Of a stretch of DNA of 64,000 bases, positions 4,902-47,610 are shown one piece after another. The notes beneath the pieces are model-generated. The model worked only from the letters and a program-made list of their open reading frames with translations, ran no database searches and was not told where the DNA came from. The DNA is taken from contig FR884179.1 in NCBI GenBank assembly GCA_000435515.1, positions 2,780 through 66,779 on the forward strand. The letters are read 5' to 3'. Position numbers and translations under genes: made by a program. Source of the DNA: Firmicutes bacterium CAG:582 (GTDB taxonomy: Bacteria > Bacillota_I > Bacilli_A > RF39 > UBA660). Within the stretch, counting starts at the first letter, position 1; every line of letters begins with the position of its first letter.

Positions 4902-6308
4902 TTAAGCATATTTCTTAATGTTTTCACTTGCTCTTTTTACATCTTTTTCATATGGAATCATTACATATCTTTTCTTGCTAGGTGCTGTATAAGTATTCAT
5001 TGATGCATCTGATCCAGATACACTTTGTCTTTCTATTTTATAAGCACTCATATCTTCAAGTTGATTCTTTACCATTAATGATATAAGACTACTTGGAATA
5101 TTAGTTTTATACAATTTACTTAAAGATGACAACGTTTTATCATACTTTAAAAGAATTGATTTATCAGTTGTAATTTTAGAAATGACAGCTTCTAATACTT
5201 GTTGTTGATTCAAAATTCGATGTCTATCTCCTAAAGCATATGCATGTCTTTCACGAGCATAACTTAGTGCCTCACCACCACTAAAATGATTCATCCCTTT
5301 TTTTACATTTGTTTTTATAGCTCCACCATCACCACAATAAGTTGTAAAAGCTTTATCACTTTCAATATCAATTCCACCAAGTAAATCAACTACCTCTACA
5401 ACTGATGAAAAACCAACTTTAATATAATAATCAATCTTAATATCAAACAAGTTTTCAACAGTTTTAACACTTGTATCTATACCATAAATACCTGCATGCG
5501 TAAGTTTATCTTTTAAACCAGTTTTACCATATACTGATACATAATAATCTCTTGGAATACTTGTTAAAAGTACTTTTTTATTTTTAGGATCTACACTTAT
5601 AATCATATTTACATCACTTCTAGTTTTACTAGCAATATAATTACTACGTGCATCACTTCCCGATAAGAAAATATTAAATGGCTTAAGTTCATCCACTAAA
5701 TTATCTTTTTTTACATTCTTTTTTATTTCAACATTAAAACTATATATTATATTAACTTTACTTTCATCAATTTCTTTTTCGTCAACAAGCATATTATAAT
5801 AAGTTTTATCAAGTAGCATTGAATTTACTTTATTATCTAAAAAATCATGAGCCAAAGAATACATGTCATCATAAGCGTTTTCACTTGCATTTACTCGTTT
5901 TTTTAATTCTTTTAAAGTCTCATCTGAATTTTCTTCATTTAGATATCCAAAATTTTTAATTGAACTTAAATCATAATTACTATCTTTTAAAACATAAACA
6001 CCATATTCACTTATTTCTACAGAATCATTATTAAAAGCATGACGCAGATAATCAATTGTTTCATTTCCATAATAATAACCAATTAAAGAAATAATAATTG
6101 TTATTATACTTATTACAAGACCAATTATATTAAGCCACTTTTTCTTTGTATATAAAAGTAAACTAATAAGATTAAATATAATTATAACACTTATAAATAT
6201 AATAAAATATTTATTTGGTAACATATTTAGACCTTTAATTGTAACTATACAAACAATTGATAATATAATGGTTAAAATACTAAGAACAATTTTTAATATA
6301 TTTTTCAT
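4902..6308 (-). CDS. LytR-CpsA-Psr (LCP) family cell-wall glycopolymer ligase
   Basis: N-terminal TM segments followed by an LCP core: ...RSDVNMIISVDPKNKKVLLTSIPRDYYV...LTHAGIYG...ALSYARERHAYALGDRHRILNQQQVL. Confidence 0.85.
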   Translation of the reverse strand: MKNILKIVLSILTIILSIVCIVTIKGLNMLPNKYFIIFISVIIIFNLISLLLYTKKKWLNIIGLVISIITIIISLIGYYYGNETIDYLRHAFNNDSVEISEYGVYVLKDSNYDLSSIKNFGYLNEENSDETLKELKKRVNASENAYDDMYSLAHDFLDNKVNSMLLDKTYYNMLVDEKEIDESKVNIIYSFNVEIKKNVKKDNLVDELKPFNIFLSGSDARSNYIASKTRSDVNMIISVDPKNKKVLLTSIPRDYYVSVYGKTGLKDKLTHAGIYGIDTSVKTVENLFDIKIDYYIKVGFSSVVEVVDLLGGIDIESDKAFTTYCGDGGAIKTNVKKGMNHFSGGEALSYARERHAYALGDRHRILNQQQVLEAVISKITTDKSILLKYDKTLSSLSKLYKTNIPSSLISLMVKNQLEDMSAYKIERQSVSGSDASMNTYTAPSKKRYVMIPYEKDVKRASENIKKYA

Positions 6309-6385: not shown

Positions 6386-6414
6386 TTGATTGTTTGTTGT
6401 TTTATTGTTATAAT
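6386..6414 (+). promoter_or_regulatory. sigma-A-type promoter of small-ORF module 1
   Basis: TTGATT, 17-nt spacer, TGtTATAAT (extended -10). Predicted start is ~6421, at GGAACAU. Confidence 0.55.
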
Positions 6415-6478
6415 TTATTTGGAACATCAGTTGTTGAGTGTCTGCCTCTAATCTTTATAGAGAGGAGGTTTGAGAGAT

Positions 6479-6571
6479 TTGAAAAAACGCGAATACTATA
6501 TAAAACTACTTCGTTACATATCACTCATTTTACTACTCTTAACCTTATTGGTTTTAGTAATAAAAAAATAG
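6479..6571 (+). CDS. 30-aa hydrophobic peptide, candidate type I toxin (module 1)
   Basis: GGAGG at 6464-6468, then a TTG start 10 nt downstream. Translation: (M)KKREYYIKLLRYISLILLLLTLLVLVIKK, stop TAG at 6569-6571. Different frame from track ORF 6349..6579. A paralogous module lies at 38404-38715. Confidence 0.5.
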   Translation: MKKREYYIKLLRYISLILLLLTLLVLVIKK

Positions 6572-6649
6572 ACACTTAATTCAAAAGAATTAAATGTCAC
6601 CACTAAAATAACGGGTAGACATTCAACATACCAAAACTGAATGTTCCCT
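6563..6649 (-). ncRNA. candidate ~85-nt antisense RNA convergent with the small ORF (module 1)
   Basis: Minus-strand TACAAT box at 6656-6661. Terminator GACAUUUAAUUC-UUUU-GAAUUAAGUGUC plus a U-run ends near 6563. Fully complementary to the ORF stop and 3' UTR. Ends are predicted only. Confidence 0.45.
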
Positions 6650-6714
6650 TTTTTTATTGTATGCAAATTTTCTTGCTAAATACATTTTACCATATTTTTA
6701 AATTGTTTTCTAGA

Positions 6715-7298: not shown

Positions 7299-8339
7299 TT
7301 ATACATCTATTTTTTCTCTCGAATTTAAATATTTTTTGTCCTTATAACTTATAATTCCTAAAAACGCAAGTCGTGTATAATAAAATGTTAATGGAATATA
7401 ATTTTCTGAACAAAAATTAACTATTTCATTTTCACTCATAGTTTGCATTTTTTGAAAATCACTTTCTGATATCATACAATCTAACGCAAATCTATCTTGA
7501 CTATCCTCGTTTTCCTTATCATCCACAACTATCTTATTTTTCAATTTATTAAAATCTGTTTTAATGTGACCAAGTTCATGATACAAAGTAAAATATAATG
7601 ATGATTTTTCTTTAAACATTCTAGAAATGAATATACACGGATTATTCTTTTTAACCATTGAACAACCGCGAATCTTTGTTCCGGGTAAAGTGTCTTCGAT
7701 AATTAAATAAATTCCATACTTTCTAAATAAATTTTTAAGTAAATCTTCATCAAATTTTTGGAATCTTATTTTTTTTAATTCTTGTAACAAATCACCAATT
7801 TTTGATGAATTATATTCACCAATTTCCATATTTTGTTCAAGAATATTTTCACATCTTCTAATCCATAAATATGTTTTTAAATTATTTGCATTCTCACGCT
7901 TTTTAAATAAAACTTTACTATTAATATAAGGTAACACTTTATCAAAAGAATCGACATGTAGAAATTGTAATAAATCATAAGCATTTTGAAGATATGAAGT
8001 TTTATCTCTTAATACAATCCACTTATTCTTATAAAGATCATTTATATAAAAACTATCCAAATATTTTTTTATTTCCTTATCACCTTTAAAGCGGTCATGT
8101 AAATATATATCCAGTTTTTTAGAGTTTTCACAAAAGAAAATTAAATTAACGTCAATGTCCGTTATTAGAGAAATTGCTATCATTAATTCTAAAGATATAT
8201 ACGACTTATCATTTAATATTTCATTTAAATGCTTTTTAGAAATTCCAAGTCTTAATGCAAAATCAGTTTGGTTTATCTTATAATAATCCAAATAATCTTT
8301 TAACATTGGACCAAATCCTTGTTGTACTTTTCTTTCCAT
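7299..8339 (-). CDS. fused XRE-family HTH / ImmA-IrrE (M78) zinc-metallopeptidase protein; putative antitoxin or regulator
   Basis: N-terminal HTH (INQTDFALRLGISKKHLNEILNDK). HExxH site in YFTLYHELGHIKTD near residue 255. Begins 8 nt after the toxin-like gene ends. Confidence 0.7.
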   Translation of the reverse strand: MERKVQQGFGPMLKDYLDYYKINQTDFALRLGISKKHLNEILNDKSYISLELMIAISLITDIDVNLIFFCENSKKLDIYLHDRFKGDKEIKKYLDSFYINDLYKNKWIVLRDKTSYLQNAYDLLQFLHVDSFDKVLPYINSKVLFKKRENANNLKTYLWIRRCENILEQNMEIGEYNSSKIGDLLQELKKIRFQKFDEDLLKNLFRKYGIYLIIEDTLPGTKIRGCSMVKKNNPCIFISRMFKEKSSLYFTLYHELGHIKTDFNKLKNKIVVDDKENEDSQDRFALDCMISESDFQKMQTMSENEIVNFCSENYIPLTFYYTRLAFLGIISYKDKKYLNSREKIDV

Positions 8340-8347
8340 ATAATCAC

Positions 8348-8668
8348 CTACCCATCATTATAATGATTTAAATTTATTTCACTTAATTCTACTTCTACAA
8401 TATATACAAGATCTAAATTTTCATTTGCTGGTCTTATAAACAATCTTATTTTTTCATTTATTCTAGCTGTATAAAAAGATTTTAAATTACCACTTTTTTT
8501 CTCTATATGAAATATCTTGCTATAAGGATTATCAAGAAGCTCTCTCATATTACCTACAAGTTTTAAATACATTATAATTCTTTCAAGAGTTTCTATCTCT
8601 TTCTTCATATGCTTATTTAAAAGTTTTTTATAATCTCTTTTATATTTAGATGTATAATTTACTATCAT
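8348..8668 (-). CDS. RelE/ParE-superfamily toxin-like protein (HigB/YafQ-like)
   Basis: 106 aa. The N-terminus IVNYTSKYKRDYKKLLNKH resembles the RelE/YafQ beta1-alpha1 region; C-terminal ...INLNHYNDG. Toxin-first gene order, as in higBA. Confidence 0.55.
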   Translation of the reverse strand: MIVNYTSKYKRDYKKLLNKHMKKEIETLERIIMYLKLVGNMRELLDNPYSKIFHIEKKSGNLKSFYTARINEKIRLFIRPANENLDLVYIVEVELSEINLNHYNDG

Positions 8669-8716: not shown

Positions 8717-8743
8717 AAAAAAAAAGAAACAATTTATGTTTCG
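8717..8743 (-). terminator. rho-independent terminator at the end of the polysaccharide cluster
   Basis: Minus strand: GAAACA-UAAAU-UGUUUC followed by U9. Confidence 0.65.
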
Positions 8744-8867
8744 TTTGATATAATTTTTTTCCAAGAGCTATTTAGTAATTTATTATTTATTAAGGATTCA
8801 TCAAAATAACAAATTGAATTAACTACCTATTCAAGAGTTCTCTTTACACTGGACAAATTATTATGAT

Positions 8868-10400
8868 CTATTTTCTCTTTTTTAATCCTTTCAACATATT
8901 TATAAAATATTTAAAGTTTTCATCTTTTGAAAACAATAATAACATAATTACATTTGGAACGATTAAAGCAATTAATACATTACTTATGAATTGAAGATAA
9001 ACATTATCAAAACTTATTAATATAGCTAATGAATAAGTAAATCCTGCTATAAGAATAAATATTATAAAATAATAGATTGTCTCTTTAATATAATCAGAAA
9101 TTTTTCTTCCGAAAAGTTTATTATAAACATATTTCGGATAGCTATAGCACCATAAAACTAATCCACTTGCAATTGTTCCCATAAACACTCCCATAAGTCC
9201 AAATTTTTTAACAAATATAATTGATAAAACTATATTTAATAAAGATTCAATTATAGGAACAAAACGATCCTCATAAAATATACCTGCTGCTTCTTTAAAA
9301 GCTCCATATGTTGAACGTGATGAAACAATAAAGAAGTTAATTACCAAAACTAATAATACTTTTGTAGGTAAAACAAATTTATAACCTATCCAAATAGTTA
9401 TAAAACTATCCATTATCACAAATATACAAATCGATGAAAAACATGATATCCAGAAGTTAACAAAACGAATTTTATTAAAAATATCAAAGTGTTTTGTTTT
9501 TGATTCGGTTACAAGCAAATTACCAACACTAGCTCTTGTAGCTTGAATAATATGATTTATTACAGTTTGAACAGCATTAATAATCATATAATAATTAGAA
9601 TATAAACCAACAGTTACTAATCCTAAGTACTTAGAGATGATAATATTATCCGTTCCTGATACAATAAAAGTTCCTATTTTGTGAAAAAACAAAGCTTTAA
9701 TTTTTTGAAATATATCTTTTTCAGTTTTACTATCTAACTTTGTAACATTATTATCTAAAAGATAACTATATCTTCTATTAACATAAGAAGATATAACAAT
9801 ATTTTCAACTAAACGCATCATTACTTTTATTATTAAATATAAATAATAATCATGAGTAAAGTAAAGGAATGTAAGTTGCATTGTATTAACTAGTATTGTA
9901 TATCCCATATGAATTATATTTGTTATATACTCTTTTTGATCTGCATATAACATACTTCTCTTATAAGATAAAATATACGAGCAAATAGTTTCAAGCAAGA
10001 AAAGAATATAAACTAAATATACATTAATACCTACTGTAACACTTTCGATATCAACAATATATTTAATGAAAGGTATAATCATAATGCCTATAATTGAAAT
10101 TATTAATGTAATAATTCGATAACTTTTTTTATAAAATTGCATCAATGATTTAATTTTTTCATGGTTCTCCTCTGCAATTGGTTTATACATATTATAAATT
10201 ATCGCTGAACCCATACCCAGTTCAACAATACCAAGCATGGATATTACATTAGAAAAAAGACCATTTAATCCTAAATATTCAGATCCTAATATTTTAATAA
10301 AAACCGCTTGAGCAACAAGTCCAACTATAATCGTTAAAACATTTGAACTAACTGCAGTAATCATATTCTTAAAAGAACTTTTTTTACGTTCACTTTTCAT
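8868..10400 (-). CDS. wzx: polysaccharide/oligosaccharide flippase (Wzx, MOP superfamily)
   Basis: 510 aa with ~12-14 TM helices. Typical Wzx N-terminus (KNMITAVSSNVLTIIVGLVAQAVFIKILGSEYLGLNGLF). Sits inside a glycosyltransferase cluster. Confidence 0.75.
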   Translation of the reverse strand: MKSERKKSSFKNMITAVSSNVLTIIVGLVAQAVFIKILGSEYLGLNGLFSNVISMLGIVELGMGSAIIYNMYKPIAEENHEKIKSLMQFYKKSYRIITLIISIIGIMIIPFIKYIVDIESVTVGINVYLVYILFLLETICSYILSYKRSMLYADQKEYITNIIHMGYTILVNTMQLTFLYFTHDYYLYLIIKVMMRLVENIVISSYVNRRYSYLLDNNVTKLDSKTEKDIFQKIKALFFHKIGTFIVSGTDNIIISKYLGLVTVGLYSNYYMIINAVQTVINHIIQATRASVGNLLVTESKTKHFDIFNKIRFVNFWISCFSSICIFVIMDSFITIWIGYKFVLPTKVLLVLVINFFIVSSRSTYGAFKEAAGIFYEDRFVPIIESLLNIVLSIIFVKKFGLMGVFMGTIASGLVLWCYSYPKYVYNKLFGRKISDYIKETIYYFIIFILIAGFTYSLAILISFDNVYLQFISNVLIALIVPNVIMLLLFSKDENFKYFINMLKGLKKRK

Positions 10401-38193: not shown

Positions 38194-38403
38194 ACATTCA
38201 CCTCATATCCTATAGAAATTATATCAAAAAACAAATAAAAATAATAGAATTAACTATATCAGTTTTAAAATTTAAATATAAACGCCCTTATTTATAAAAT
38301 TATAATTCTATATAAAAATAGAACTCATTTTCTATTGAGTTCTCATTTAATATTAACTTTGTAAAAAAAAGTATATATCAATAAATAAAAAAACAATTAG
38401 CTA

Positions 38404-38432
38404 TTGCATATAAAACAAATGTTTGATATTTT
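38404..38432 (+). promoter_or_regulatory. sigma-A-type promoter of small-ORF module 2
   Basis: TTGCAT, 17-nt spacer, TGaTATTTT (extended -10). Predicted start ~38440, at GGAACAU as in module 1. Confidence 0.5.
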
Positions 38433-38494
38433 ATTTATAGGAACATTTAATAGTTGGGTGATTTGCCAAACTTCAAAAGAAGGGAGGCGATATT

Positions 38495-38578
38495 ATGAGC
38501 AAGAAAGACTTTTTAATCTTATCTTTAATCATTATTATCTTCCTATTAGTATCTTTGTTATACATAGTACTAATATAG
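38495..38578 (+). CDS. 27-aa hydrophobic peptide, candidate type I toxin (module 2)
   Basis: GGGAGG at 38482-38487, 7-nt spacer, then ATG. Translation: MSKKDFLILSLIIIIFLLVSLLYIVLI, stop TAG at 38576-38578. Different frame from track ORF 38404..38598. Confidence 0.55.
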   Translation: MSKKDFLILSLIIIIFLLVSLLYIVLI

Positions 38579-38581
38579 AAA

Positions 38582-38669
38582 TAAAAAAAATCACCTAACT
38601 CAGCAATGATTTAGGTGATTGCTAAAATATTACTAGGCAACACTCAACATGCGAATATTAAATGTTCCT
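38582..38669 (-). ncRNA. candidate ~85-nt antisense RNA convergent with the small ORF (module 2)
   Basis: Minus-strand TACAAT at 38676-38681. Terminator AAUCACCUAA-N12-UUAGGUGAUU plus U8-9 ends near 38582. Same layout and length as module 1. Confidence 0.45.
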
Positions 38670-38714
38670 CTTTTTATTGTATGCAAGTCTTTCTTGCTAA
38701 ATACATTTTACCAT

Positions 38715-38756
38715 AAAAAAAGTATTCATACAAGTTCAACGAATACTCTTTTTTTT
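38715..38756. terminator. bidirectional terminator after the AI-2E transporter gene
   Basis: AGUAUUC-N13-GAAUACU, flanked by A7 and U8 runs. Confidence 0.6.
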
Positions 38757-38760
38757 ACTT

Positions 38761-47396: not shown

Positions 47397-47610
47397 ATAA
47401 AAAAGAGCAATAAGTCCAAAAAGGACGAATTGCTCGCGGTACCACCTTTATTCGTAATAATAGTTTATTACCTCTTCTTGATAACGGAAAAATCCGATTA
47501 AAATCATCATCTGTAATTCATTATTATAAAATTACTTGTTTACACCACCCACAAGCTCTCTATTTAACTCTTAAAATAACTACTTTAAATGAATCGCTTT
47601 TTAATTAACC
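47397..47610 (-). promoter_or_regulatory. T-box riboswitch leader (Tyr/UAC specifier) with terminator
   Basis: Minus strand: T-box AAAGGUGGUACCGCGAG (47433-47449). Terminator GAGCAAU...AUUGCUC plus a U-run. AGAGA box and distal loop CUUGU-GGGUGGUGUAA-ACAAG. GAAU-UAC-A at 47513-47515. Promoter TTGACT-17-TATATT at 47617-47645. Confidence 0.85.

Follow-up and report, generated by a model that had tools for sequence, protein, structure and literature searches.

What is encoded in the short gap between rlmN and an AI-2E transporter gene in the gut bacterium Firmicutes bacterium CAG:582, and does the element found there belong to a family of RNA-based modules? The gap lies in a stretch of 64,000 nt that was analysed as a whole and is called the window here (GenBank assembly GCA_000435515.1, contig FR884179.1, positions 2,780 to 66,779 of the forward strand; G+C content 26%), and both neighbouring genes were assigned by Pfam. 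An initial annotation, made from the letters of the sequence, had described in this gap the second copy of a compact module (module 2; module 1 lies 32 kb away), in which the two ends of a short transcript pair with each other around a small open reading frame (ORF) and a convergent antisense RNA is read from the opposite strand. Our formal tests support that interpretation of a paralogous RNA-based module. We consider the feature, with a probability of roughly 0.7, to be a chromosomal type I toxin–antitoxin-like module, the toxicity of the peptide and the expression of both RNAs being inferred from sequence.

Results

Two copies of one architecture

Each element was read directly at both loci and then checked by script; coordinates are collected in Table 1. 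The observation that started this work was confirmed apart from a single coordinate that had slipped by 1 nt. In module 2 the TG-extended promoter TTGCAT-17-TATTTT, the GGGAGG Shine-Dalgarno (SD) sequence with its 7-nt spacer and ATG, the 27-codon ORF encoding MSKKDFLILSLIIIIFLLVSLLYIVLI and the minus-strand −10 box TACAAT all stand where they had been placed, and the minus strand carries AATCACCTAA-N12-TTAGGTGATT followed by T8 (38620-38582). The first nucleotides of the predicted transcript, GGAACATTTAATA (38440-38452), match the reverse complement of 38656-38668 exactly, for a helix of 13 perfect base pairs, and the proposed extension of this helix, GGCAACACTCAAC, exists as well, at 38636-38648 rather than at 38637-38649. 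The terminal block of module 2 (38662-38715), judged by eye to be about 90% identical to 6641-6694, aligns with 51 of 55 columns the same (93%), two mismatches and two gaps; it spans the last part of the 3' helix arm, the U/A-run and the promoter of the antisense small RNA (sRNA). The one description in need of revision was that the interiors of the two copies are not alignable: the two peptides are indeed of different types, but the interiors are 61% identical, with alignable stretches at helix 2, around the SD and in the terminator context.

These similarities are confined to the two loci within the window. The 26-mer TTTCTTGCTAAATACATTTTACCATA occurs exactly twice against an expectation of zero, the exact antisense promoter motif is present only at the two modules, and neither nhmmer nor a covariance model run with its filters off returned a window copy beyond the two. 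The possibility raised at the outset that the terminal 54-nt block is a generic repeat did not hold, as the block stands 5' of the same antisense unit in 43 of 43 distinct instances and is linked to a small ORF in most of them.

A multi-copy family in gut Bacilli

By their sequences, the putative modules are a previously unannotated, multi-copy family of uncultured AT-rich gut Bacilli. A scan of GTDB genomes with a 20-mer of the block returned two metagenome-assembled genomes from Hadza gut samples ("uncultured Bacilli bacterium"), both with orthologues of module 1, so the exact block is narrow in range. Metagenomes scanned with the pattern ATGTTCC-N1-3-TTTTTATTGTATGCAA yielded 33 loci, from human gut and, by contig names, from at least one ground-squirrel sample. 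L002, an orthologue of module 1 from another species, shares its flanks and occupies an orthologous site. An nhmmer search over all fetched DNA added copies that lack the exact pattern, among them second full copies, others whose 5' part has been replaced, and units consisting of the 3' half alone; it also matched the module 2 mRNA over its full length (E 7e-32). The distinct sequences obtained in this way, 23 full modules and 43 antisense units, are the sets used below.

Existing libraries hold no trace of the family above chance. At the gathering threshold Rfam gave no match at either module, the sole family above threshold anywhere in the window being a T-box leader at 47418-47606 on the minus strand (100.2 bits against 93), and at E ≤ 10 the two modules drew only chance-level matches (PyrR, 26.7 of 54 bits; BsrG, 11.6 of 55). 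Pfam and NCBIfam likewise returned only chance-level matches to four peptides at E ≤ 10. There was no match in plasmid and phage collections (blastn, distant mode), and the pattern scan of IMG/VR gave 0 matches. Among 1.84 billion protein representatives, a 33-codon reading of module 1 found four matches, all of them longer, mis-called ORFs that end in the peptide. Literature searches brought up no type I system described for the host lineage. In a public-assembly index, 196 blocks list the RlmN protein encoded next to module 2.

A covarying helix closes the predicted plus-strand transcript

Folds were computed on 38440-38680 (module 2) and 6422-6660 (module 1) and compared with 200 shuffles each. 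In both copies the claimed helix between the 5' and 3' ends closes the minimum-free-energy (MFE) fold, at −69 kcal/mol (z −7.3) for module 2 and −59.6 kcal/mol (z −5.6) for module 1, and 0 of 200 shuffles were as good in either case. Conservation of this helix, asserted initially from two sequences, extends to the family: RNAalifold on the 23 distinct full modules retains the two-part 5'-3' helix together with the internal hairpin, which is the terminator of the antisense RNA. Standard pairs fill 95.6% of the cells of the consensus, against 88.2 ± 0.6% in column shuffles and 37-44% when the 3' partners are slid, with sub-helix 1 paired at 99.2% and sub-helix 2 at 97.6%. Double changes occur at 13 pairs of the consensus, and six compensated pairs fall within the two sub-helices of the closing helix. 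The replacement of CAGUU/AACUG in one copy by UUAAU/AUUAA in the other, which had first suggested compensatory change, appears in the formal alignment as covariation at pairs 9:252, 10:251 and 11:250.

The exceptions to Watson–Crick pairing are as informative as the pairs themselves. Read on the plus strand, they comprise about 46 G·U cells versus about three A·C cells, an asymmetry that a DNA-level repeat does not predict and that points to RNA structure on this strand. The closing element is modelled as an interrupted helix of 22-26 bp abutting a U-tract, with a predicted arm-to-arm duplex energy of −29 to −36 kcal/mol, and the position of the U-tract directly past it suggests that the helix itself may act as the terminator of the mRNA. 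Since its ends are paired and its SD is enclosed by the interior fold, the complete transcript is expected to be compact and stable and to be translated poorly; the predicted folds show the SD sequestration and/or 5'-3' interaction that generally keeps the toxin mRNA of type I systems inert. In constrained folding of the family, the mean unpaired probability of the SD fell from 0.16 in the full-length transcript to 0.08 when the 3' arm was blocked.

A further pairing is present in two orthologues of module 1 (L001, 7690-7730 and 7850-7870, and the equivalent in L002), where CCUCC in the 5' untranslated region (UTR) has two possible partners, the SD (AAAGGAGG) and a GGAGG of the 3' arm. It suggests a three-way arrangement of anti-SD, SD and SD mimic, is not present in module 2 of the window, and prompted the hypothesis of a switch in which binding of the antisense RNA would release an anti-SD that then closes off the SD. 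We do not claim such a switch, the results of constrained folding not being uniform.

The minus strand carries an independent antisense unit

The 43 distinct 3' units were aligned on the −10 box of the antisense promoter, which reads TTGCATA(C/A)AAT and is followed by a run of A5-7 and G(G)AACAU. At its fixed distance from GGAAC the box is invariant (TACAAT or TAAAAT), and TAAAAT is kept in three divergent units that were found by nhmmer and not by the pattern. The predicted sRNA would start opposite the last base of the closing helix and end just past the stop codon of the ORF, which makes it perfectly complementary to the whole 3' UTR including the 3' arm. Across the family its predicted length is 75-86 nt, with a consensus of a 9-bp 5' hairpin, a linker and an 11-bp terminator followed by a U-run.

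The structure of this RNA is supported on its own strand. The 5' hairpin is paired in 98.9% of cells, with 59 G·U versus one A·C on the minus strand, and the terminator has compensatory changes at nine of its 11 stem pairs, with G·U pairs on the minus strand only. Covariance model R1 gave module 2 71.5 bits on the minus strand (E 3e-13) against 15.3 on the plus strand, and module 1 83.1 against 34 bits; promoter and terminator scans also list the sense promoter of module 1 and its minus-strand terminator. The hairpin at 38589-38620 was considered as a plus-strand terminator as well and ruled out, since the plus strand has no U tail there and family variants become C·A mismatches, which assigns the hairpin to the minus strand. 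Sequence signals thus indicate an antisense gene complementary to the candidate toxin mRNA, as is generic for type I systems.

Antisense units also stand alone. Orphan, sRNA-only units were found at L004, L007, L024, L028, L029 and L030, some in tandem and some keeping a remnant of the last ORF codons. Their occurrence marks the antisense unit as an independent gene, and they form the pattern expected where a putative toxin has been lost and its antitoxin kept.

In every case the antisense promoter has a short palindrome in its spacer, immediately next to the −10 box (38683-38697 and 6663-6676 in the window; L023 and others), in the forms GCAAG-N5-CTTGC, GCAA-N6-TTGC or TGCAATATTGCA; a variant in L023, TGCGATATCGCA, is altered in both halves. 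This palindrome could be the operator for a dimeric regulator of the antitoxin RNA.

Two peptide types under one RNA scaffold

In all intact copies an SD lies 6-14 nt 5' of the start codon, and the ORFs fall into two types of near-constant length. Type A has 30 codons in 12 of 13 ORFs and 31 in the remaining one, with the consensus MKKRTFIxKxLRLIxIILLLLTLLVLAIKK; type B, to which module 2 belongs, has 27 codons in 8 of 8 intact ORFs and resembles MGKKDFLILSLIIIINLLIALLFIALK. The pN/pS ratio (nonsynonymous to synonymous polymorphism) comes to 0.47 in type A and 0.27 in type B. The type B peptide is predicted to be a single hydrophobic, probably membrane-embedded, helix after MSKKD, and at 27 or 30 residues both types have the small size (below 60 residues), hydrophobicity and own SD that are generic for type I toxins. 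Type B ORFs also occur under UTRs of the module 1 type (L006 and others), so that the peptide behaves as a swappable cassette within one RNA scaffold.

In two further type B copies (L011, 2390-2625, and L034, 3710-3948) the T-run at codons 6-8 differs in length by 1 nt, which breaks the frame. By their sequence these would be either pseudogenes or homopolymer assembly errors.

The module is invariant among strains, its promoters are not

Eight more contigs encode an identical RlmN and, with the window, give nine strain sequences of the intergenic region. No variable site falls in the 229 nt of 38440-38668, against about 18 in the other 338 nt of the same region. Three strains (L039, L042, L043) carry TA to CG in the −10 box of the putative toxin promoter (equivalent to 38427-38428), and the same three also carry TA to CG in the upstream block of the antisense promoter (equivalent to 38698-38699). 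The sense promoter of module 2 scored below the threshold of the promoter scan, in which that of module 1 is listed (TTGATT-17-TATAAT with TG), and orthologues of the module 2 type have the canonical promoters TTGCGT-17-TATAAT (L010) and TTGATT-17-TACAAT (L018) at the same 7-nt distance to GGAAC/TAT.

Hairpins flank the region on both sides. One, AGAACTCA-N8-TGAGTTCT at 38320-38343, has T-runs on both sides and lies between the module 2 promoter and the start of rlmN; the other, GTATTC-N..-GAATAC at 38722-38758, is flanked by A7 and T8 just past the stop of the AI-2E transporter gene. Both look like bidirectional terminators that would insulate the module from its neighbours.

Feature coordinates and genomic setting

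Table 1. Features of module 2 and of its paralogue, module 1, in window coordinates
Feature	Coordinates	Strand	Basis
Sense (putative toxin mRNA) promoter: −35 TTGCAT, 17-nt spacer, TG-extended −10 TATTTT	38404..38432	+	read from sequence
Predicted toxin mRNA, ~235 nt, from G of GGAACAU to U-tract past closing helix	38440..38675	+	ends inferred; MFE; nhmmer
Predicted long-range helix, 5' arm: GGAACAUUUAAUA + GUUGGGUG..UGCC	38440..38467	+	folds, family alignment; arm-arm duplex −28.7 kcal/mol
Shine-Dalgarno GGGAGG, 7 nt 5' of ATG; predicted base-paired in full-length fold	38482..38487	+	unpaired probability 0.03
Small ORF, 27 codons + stop, MSKKDFLILSLIIIIFLLVSLLYIVLI, type B peptide	38495..38578	+	sequence; family constraint
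Predicted antisense sRNA, ~85-87 nt: 5' hairpin, single-stranded linker, Rho-independent terminator	38582..38668	-	covariance model R1
Predicted antisense RNA terminator: stem AAUCACCUAA/UUAGGUGAUU (38589-38620), 12-nt loop, U8 tail	38581..38620	-	sequence; family covariation
Predicted long-range helix, 3' arm: GGCAACACUCAAC, 7-nt bulge loop AUGCGAA, then UAUUAAAUGUUCC	38636..38668	+	fold and family alignment
U-rich tract right behind closing helix; likely mRNA termination tail	38669..38675	+	read from sequence
Predicted antisense promoter: −10 TACAAT (38676-38681), palindrome GCAAG-N5-CTTGC (38683-38697), AT-rich upstream block to 38715	38676..38715	-	43-unit anchored alignment
Paralogous module 1, whole	6386..6694	+	sequence, fold, covariance model
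Module 1 sense promoter	6386-6414	+	
Module 1 predicted mRNA	~6421-6655	+	
Module 1 ORF, type A peptide MKKREYYIKLLRYISLILLLLTLLVLVIKK, TTG start	6479-6571	+	
Module 1 predicted antisense sRNA	6647-6563	-	
Module 1 antisense promoter block	6656-6694		

Read on the opposite strand, the U-rich tract behind the closing helix becomes the A-run that separates the −10 box from the sRNA start; the tract is kept across the family, but it belonged to the scan pattern.

Other members place the modules in a wider setting. At L006 (3100-3800) the interval between rpoC and polC contains a full module together with a degenerate orphan, in which the final codons of the toxin ORF remain along with the terminator, the 3' arm and a TAAAAT promoter; this arrangement indicates that modules insert between core housekeeping genes. 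At L023 two full modules in the same orientation (4909-5144 and 8735-8971) stand around a segment of ~3.6 kb with genes for an nSTAND3 NTPase (788 aa) and for a protein of the YunG/uracil-DNA-glycosylase family, and the segment may be a defence islet bounded by module repeats. Near module 1 in the window, a 346-aa protein with an N-terminal HTH_3 domain (7299-8339, minus strand) is encoded next to a 106-aa protein with no Pfam match (8348-8668, minus strand), a pair whose layout is reminiscent of a type II toxin–antitoxin or immunity-repressor pair.

Discussion

The comparative record presented here, with covariation on both strands and a constrained ORF, favours a type I toxin–antitoxin-like module. 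Could the ORF instead encode a non-toxic small membrane protein, its level tuned by a cis-antisense RNA with no toxin–antitoxin logic of addiction or stress? The structure, the ORF and the antisense data would fit such a gene equally well, and the modules do sit between housekeeping genes (rlmN and the AI-2E gene here, rpoC and polC in L006) and are absent from plasmid and phage collections. Multi-copy paralogy in single genomes, however, is less expected of a tuned membrane protein gene, as are the exchange of two unrelated peptide cassettes under one RNA scaffold and the presence of frameshifted copies (L011, L034) and, in some strains, of promoter-down variants. Orphan antisense genes that remain after the 5' part of the ORF has been lost are usual for toxin loci, and strong SD burial combined with 5'-3' closure is a hallmark of type I toxin mRNAs (PMC8594479). 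On balance we regard a non-toxic gene of this kind as unlikely.

A second alternative is that only the minus-strand sRNA is functional, acting in trans, while the plus-strand helix and ORF are relics or by-products and the 5' arm is a diverged duplicate of the sRNA 5' end. The differences between the 5' arm and the sRNA speak against it, as they lie at fixed positions where they turn contacts with the 3' arm into G·U pairs (at 20:235, for instance, in 18 of 23 modules), which duplication or gene conversion would not yield. The arms also covary, the ORF is under purifying selection with its length fixed, and all 229 nt are invariant among strains, beyond the part that encodes the sRNA. This scenario is therefore improbable, even though the sRNA unit is the most conserved part of the module and is also found alone, and although the 5' ends of sRNA and mRNA are near-identical in sequence. 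A miniature inverted-repeat transposable element, with the GGAACAT...ATGTTCC arms as transposase-recognised terminal repeats and the ORF and hairpins incidental, would account for a multi-copy unit of ~230 bp with 25-30-nt imperfect inverted repeats at varied intergenic sites, and its terminal repeats would also show paired arm changes, but it is rejected as highly implausible on the strand-specific G·U pattern (arm mismatches nearly all G·U on the plus strand, and a second, minus-strand-specific set of G·U-rich pairs at 59:1), to which ORF length and amino-acid constraint, the persistence of half-elements (the 3' unit alone) as intact promoter-to-terminator units, orthologous sites across species (L002) and the finding of no target-site duplication noted at either window copy can be added.

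Several points nevertheless weigh against the type I reading. The presumed toxicity derives from the size and hydrophobicity of the peptide, and both RNAs and their ends are predictions from the DNA. The outer seven pairs of the closing helix, the U-tract and the −10 box were set by the scan pattern or by the 5'-arm regular expression used for selection, so their invariance arises partly by construction and the independent evidence for the helix comes from the inner pairs; the members of the family are moreover related, and shuffle controls overstate significance to that extent. When the 3' arm is blocked, the unpaired probability of the SD in module 2 itself rises from 0.03 to 0.53, so that the predicted response to antisense binding is not uniform. 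Finally, the sense promoter of module 2 is weak (TATTTT, unlisted in the scan) with a −10 box mutated in three of the nine strains, and inspection of the 43-unit alignment revealed no recognisable −35 element for the antisense promoter.

For the type I toxin–antitoxin-like module that we favour, the order of its parts suggests how the two RNAs might interact. The 5' arm of the mRNA reads h1-h2 and the 3' arm h2'-bulge loop (7-9 nt)-h1'-U-tract, whereas the sRNA reads h1-loop-h2-linker-terminator. The sRNA thus repeats the sequence of the mRNA 5' arm and is perfectly complementary to the 3' arm, and within it h1 pairs with h2 via G·U pairs. In module 2 the loop of the sRNA 5' hairpin is complementary to the bulge loop of the closed mRNA. 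Predicted sRNA–mRNA duplexes amount to −138 and −146 kcal/mol for the cognate pairs and to about −50 for crosses between the paralogues.

By analogy with bsrG/SR4 (PMC3834814) and with general RNA decay in Gram-positive bacteria, first contact would be made loop to loop, between the sRNA 5' hairpin and the 7-9-nt bulge loop, and the two terminator loops may also meet. Spreading of the duplex would then displace the mRNA 5' arm, RNase III would cut the long duplex, and the freed 5' end would be open to decay, while the SD would become still less accessible in most family members upon antisense binding. The net outcome would be that peptide synthesis is blocked for as long as the sRNA is made.

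These features can be extended into a broader model of a lineage-specific RNA network built on mimicry, which we offer tentatively and, taken as a whole, hold to be unlikely. In such a network the antisense RNA, by sharing the sequence of the 5' arm, would compete with that arm for the 3' arm. The resulting strand-displacement switch would toggle the mRNA, closed and stable in one form and open and degradable or silenced in the other, tandem orphan sRNA genes would act in trans on several paralogous toxin mRNAs, and the palindrome would be an operator that places the supply of antitoxin under a protein regulator.

The architecture has a clear precedent in the experimentally studied bsrG/SR4 of Bacillus subtilis. 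There too, a small hydrophobic peptide is encoded by a short mRNA whose very first nucleotides form a long interrupted helix with a 3' segment (P1, nt 1-35 with 232-262). As in the module, the SD lies within a double-stranded stretch, in that case a short helix, and a convergently oriented antisense RNA overlaps the mRNA at its 3' side, where the 3' strand of the helix lies; first contact is made via loops, as proposed for the module (PMC3834814). The match is architectural only, as the Rfam BsrG model (RF01412) scored at chance level on the window (38453-38623, plus strand; E = 2). SR4 has 183 nt, whereas the antisense RNA of the module has about 85 nt and reaches across the 3' UTR and no further than the final codons of the ORF. 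The module further differs in having no separate mRNA terminator hairpin, its U-tract lying directly behind the closing helix, and in its non-uniform predicted SD response to antisense binding, which in bsrG/SR4 lengthens the SD-sequestering helix; its host, at 26% GC, belongs to an uncultured lineage of gut Bacilli, and the locus lies outside prophage.

Other type I systems share parts of this design. In hok/Sok of plasmid R1 and AapA1/IsoA1 of Helicobacter pylori, 5'-3' interaction and SD sequestration make the full-length mRNA inert, as predicted here. Their antisense RNAs target the 5' region and the mRNA is activated by 3' or 5' processing, whereas the antisense RNA of the module complements the 3' arm from a unit at the 3' end; the peptides have no match to the Hok family in Pfam, and the hosts of both systems are Gram-negative, unlike that of the module. 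In Fst/RNA II (the par locus of Enterococcus faecalis pAD1) and SprA1/SprA1as, as predicted for the module, the toxin mRNA and the sRNA are convergent, the peptide has ~30 residues, the 5' ends are structured and pairing begins loop to loop. The par locus has direct repeats, complementary 5' ends and a shared bidirectional terminator, whereas the module has inverted repeats, which make its two 5' ends alike and not complementary, and a U tail on the minus strand only; none of four peptides matched Fst_toxin in Pfam or NCBIfam (E ≤ 10). The convergent Gram-positive layout of Fst/SprA1-type systems is summarised in T1TAdb (PMC8594479), which places the antisense RNA of Gram-positive type I families at the 3' side and treats long-distance 5'-3' interaction and SD sequestration as general, key determinants of type I systems.

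In summary, it is well supported that the module represents a new family within a known class, that of type I systems in which the antisense RNA overlaps the 3' side and the mRNA is closed by pairing of its 5' and 3' ends, and not a new class; given the match in architecture to bsrG/SR4, it adds little in principle. Type I toxin–antitoxin systems are not easily detected by homology and have been catalogued in few phyla, in 24 families (PMC8594479; PMC12390103), and the present family was missed by protein libraries, RNA libraries and gene callers despite several copies per genome in a common, uncultured, small-genome lineage of human-gut Bacilli. Its covariance model is ready for annotating modules in metagenomes, and its clean comparative record, with covariation on two strands, swappable cassettes and orphan antitoxins, suits the study of how such modules evolve. 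The value of the finding lies in comparative evidence and in the annotation of a common uncultured gut lineage.

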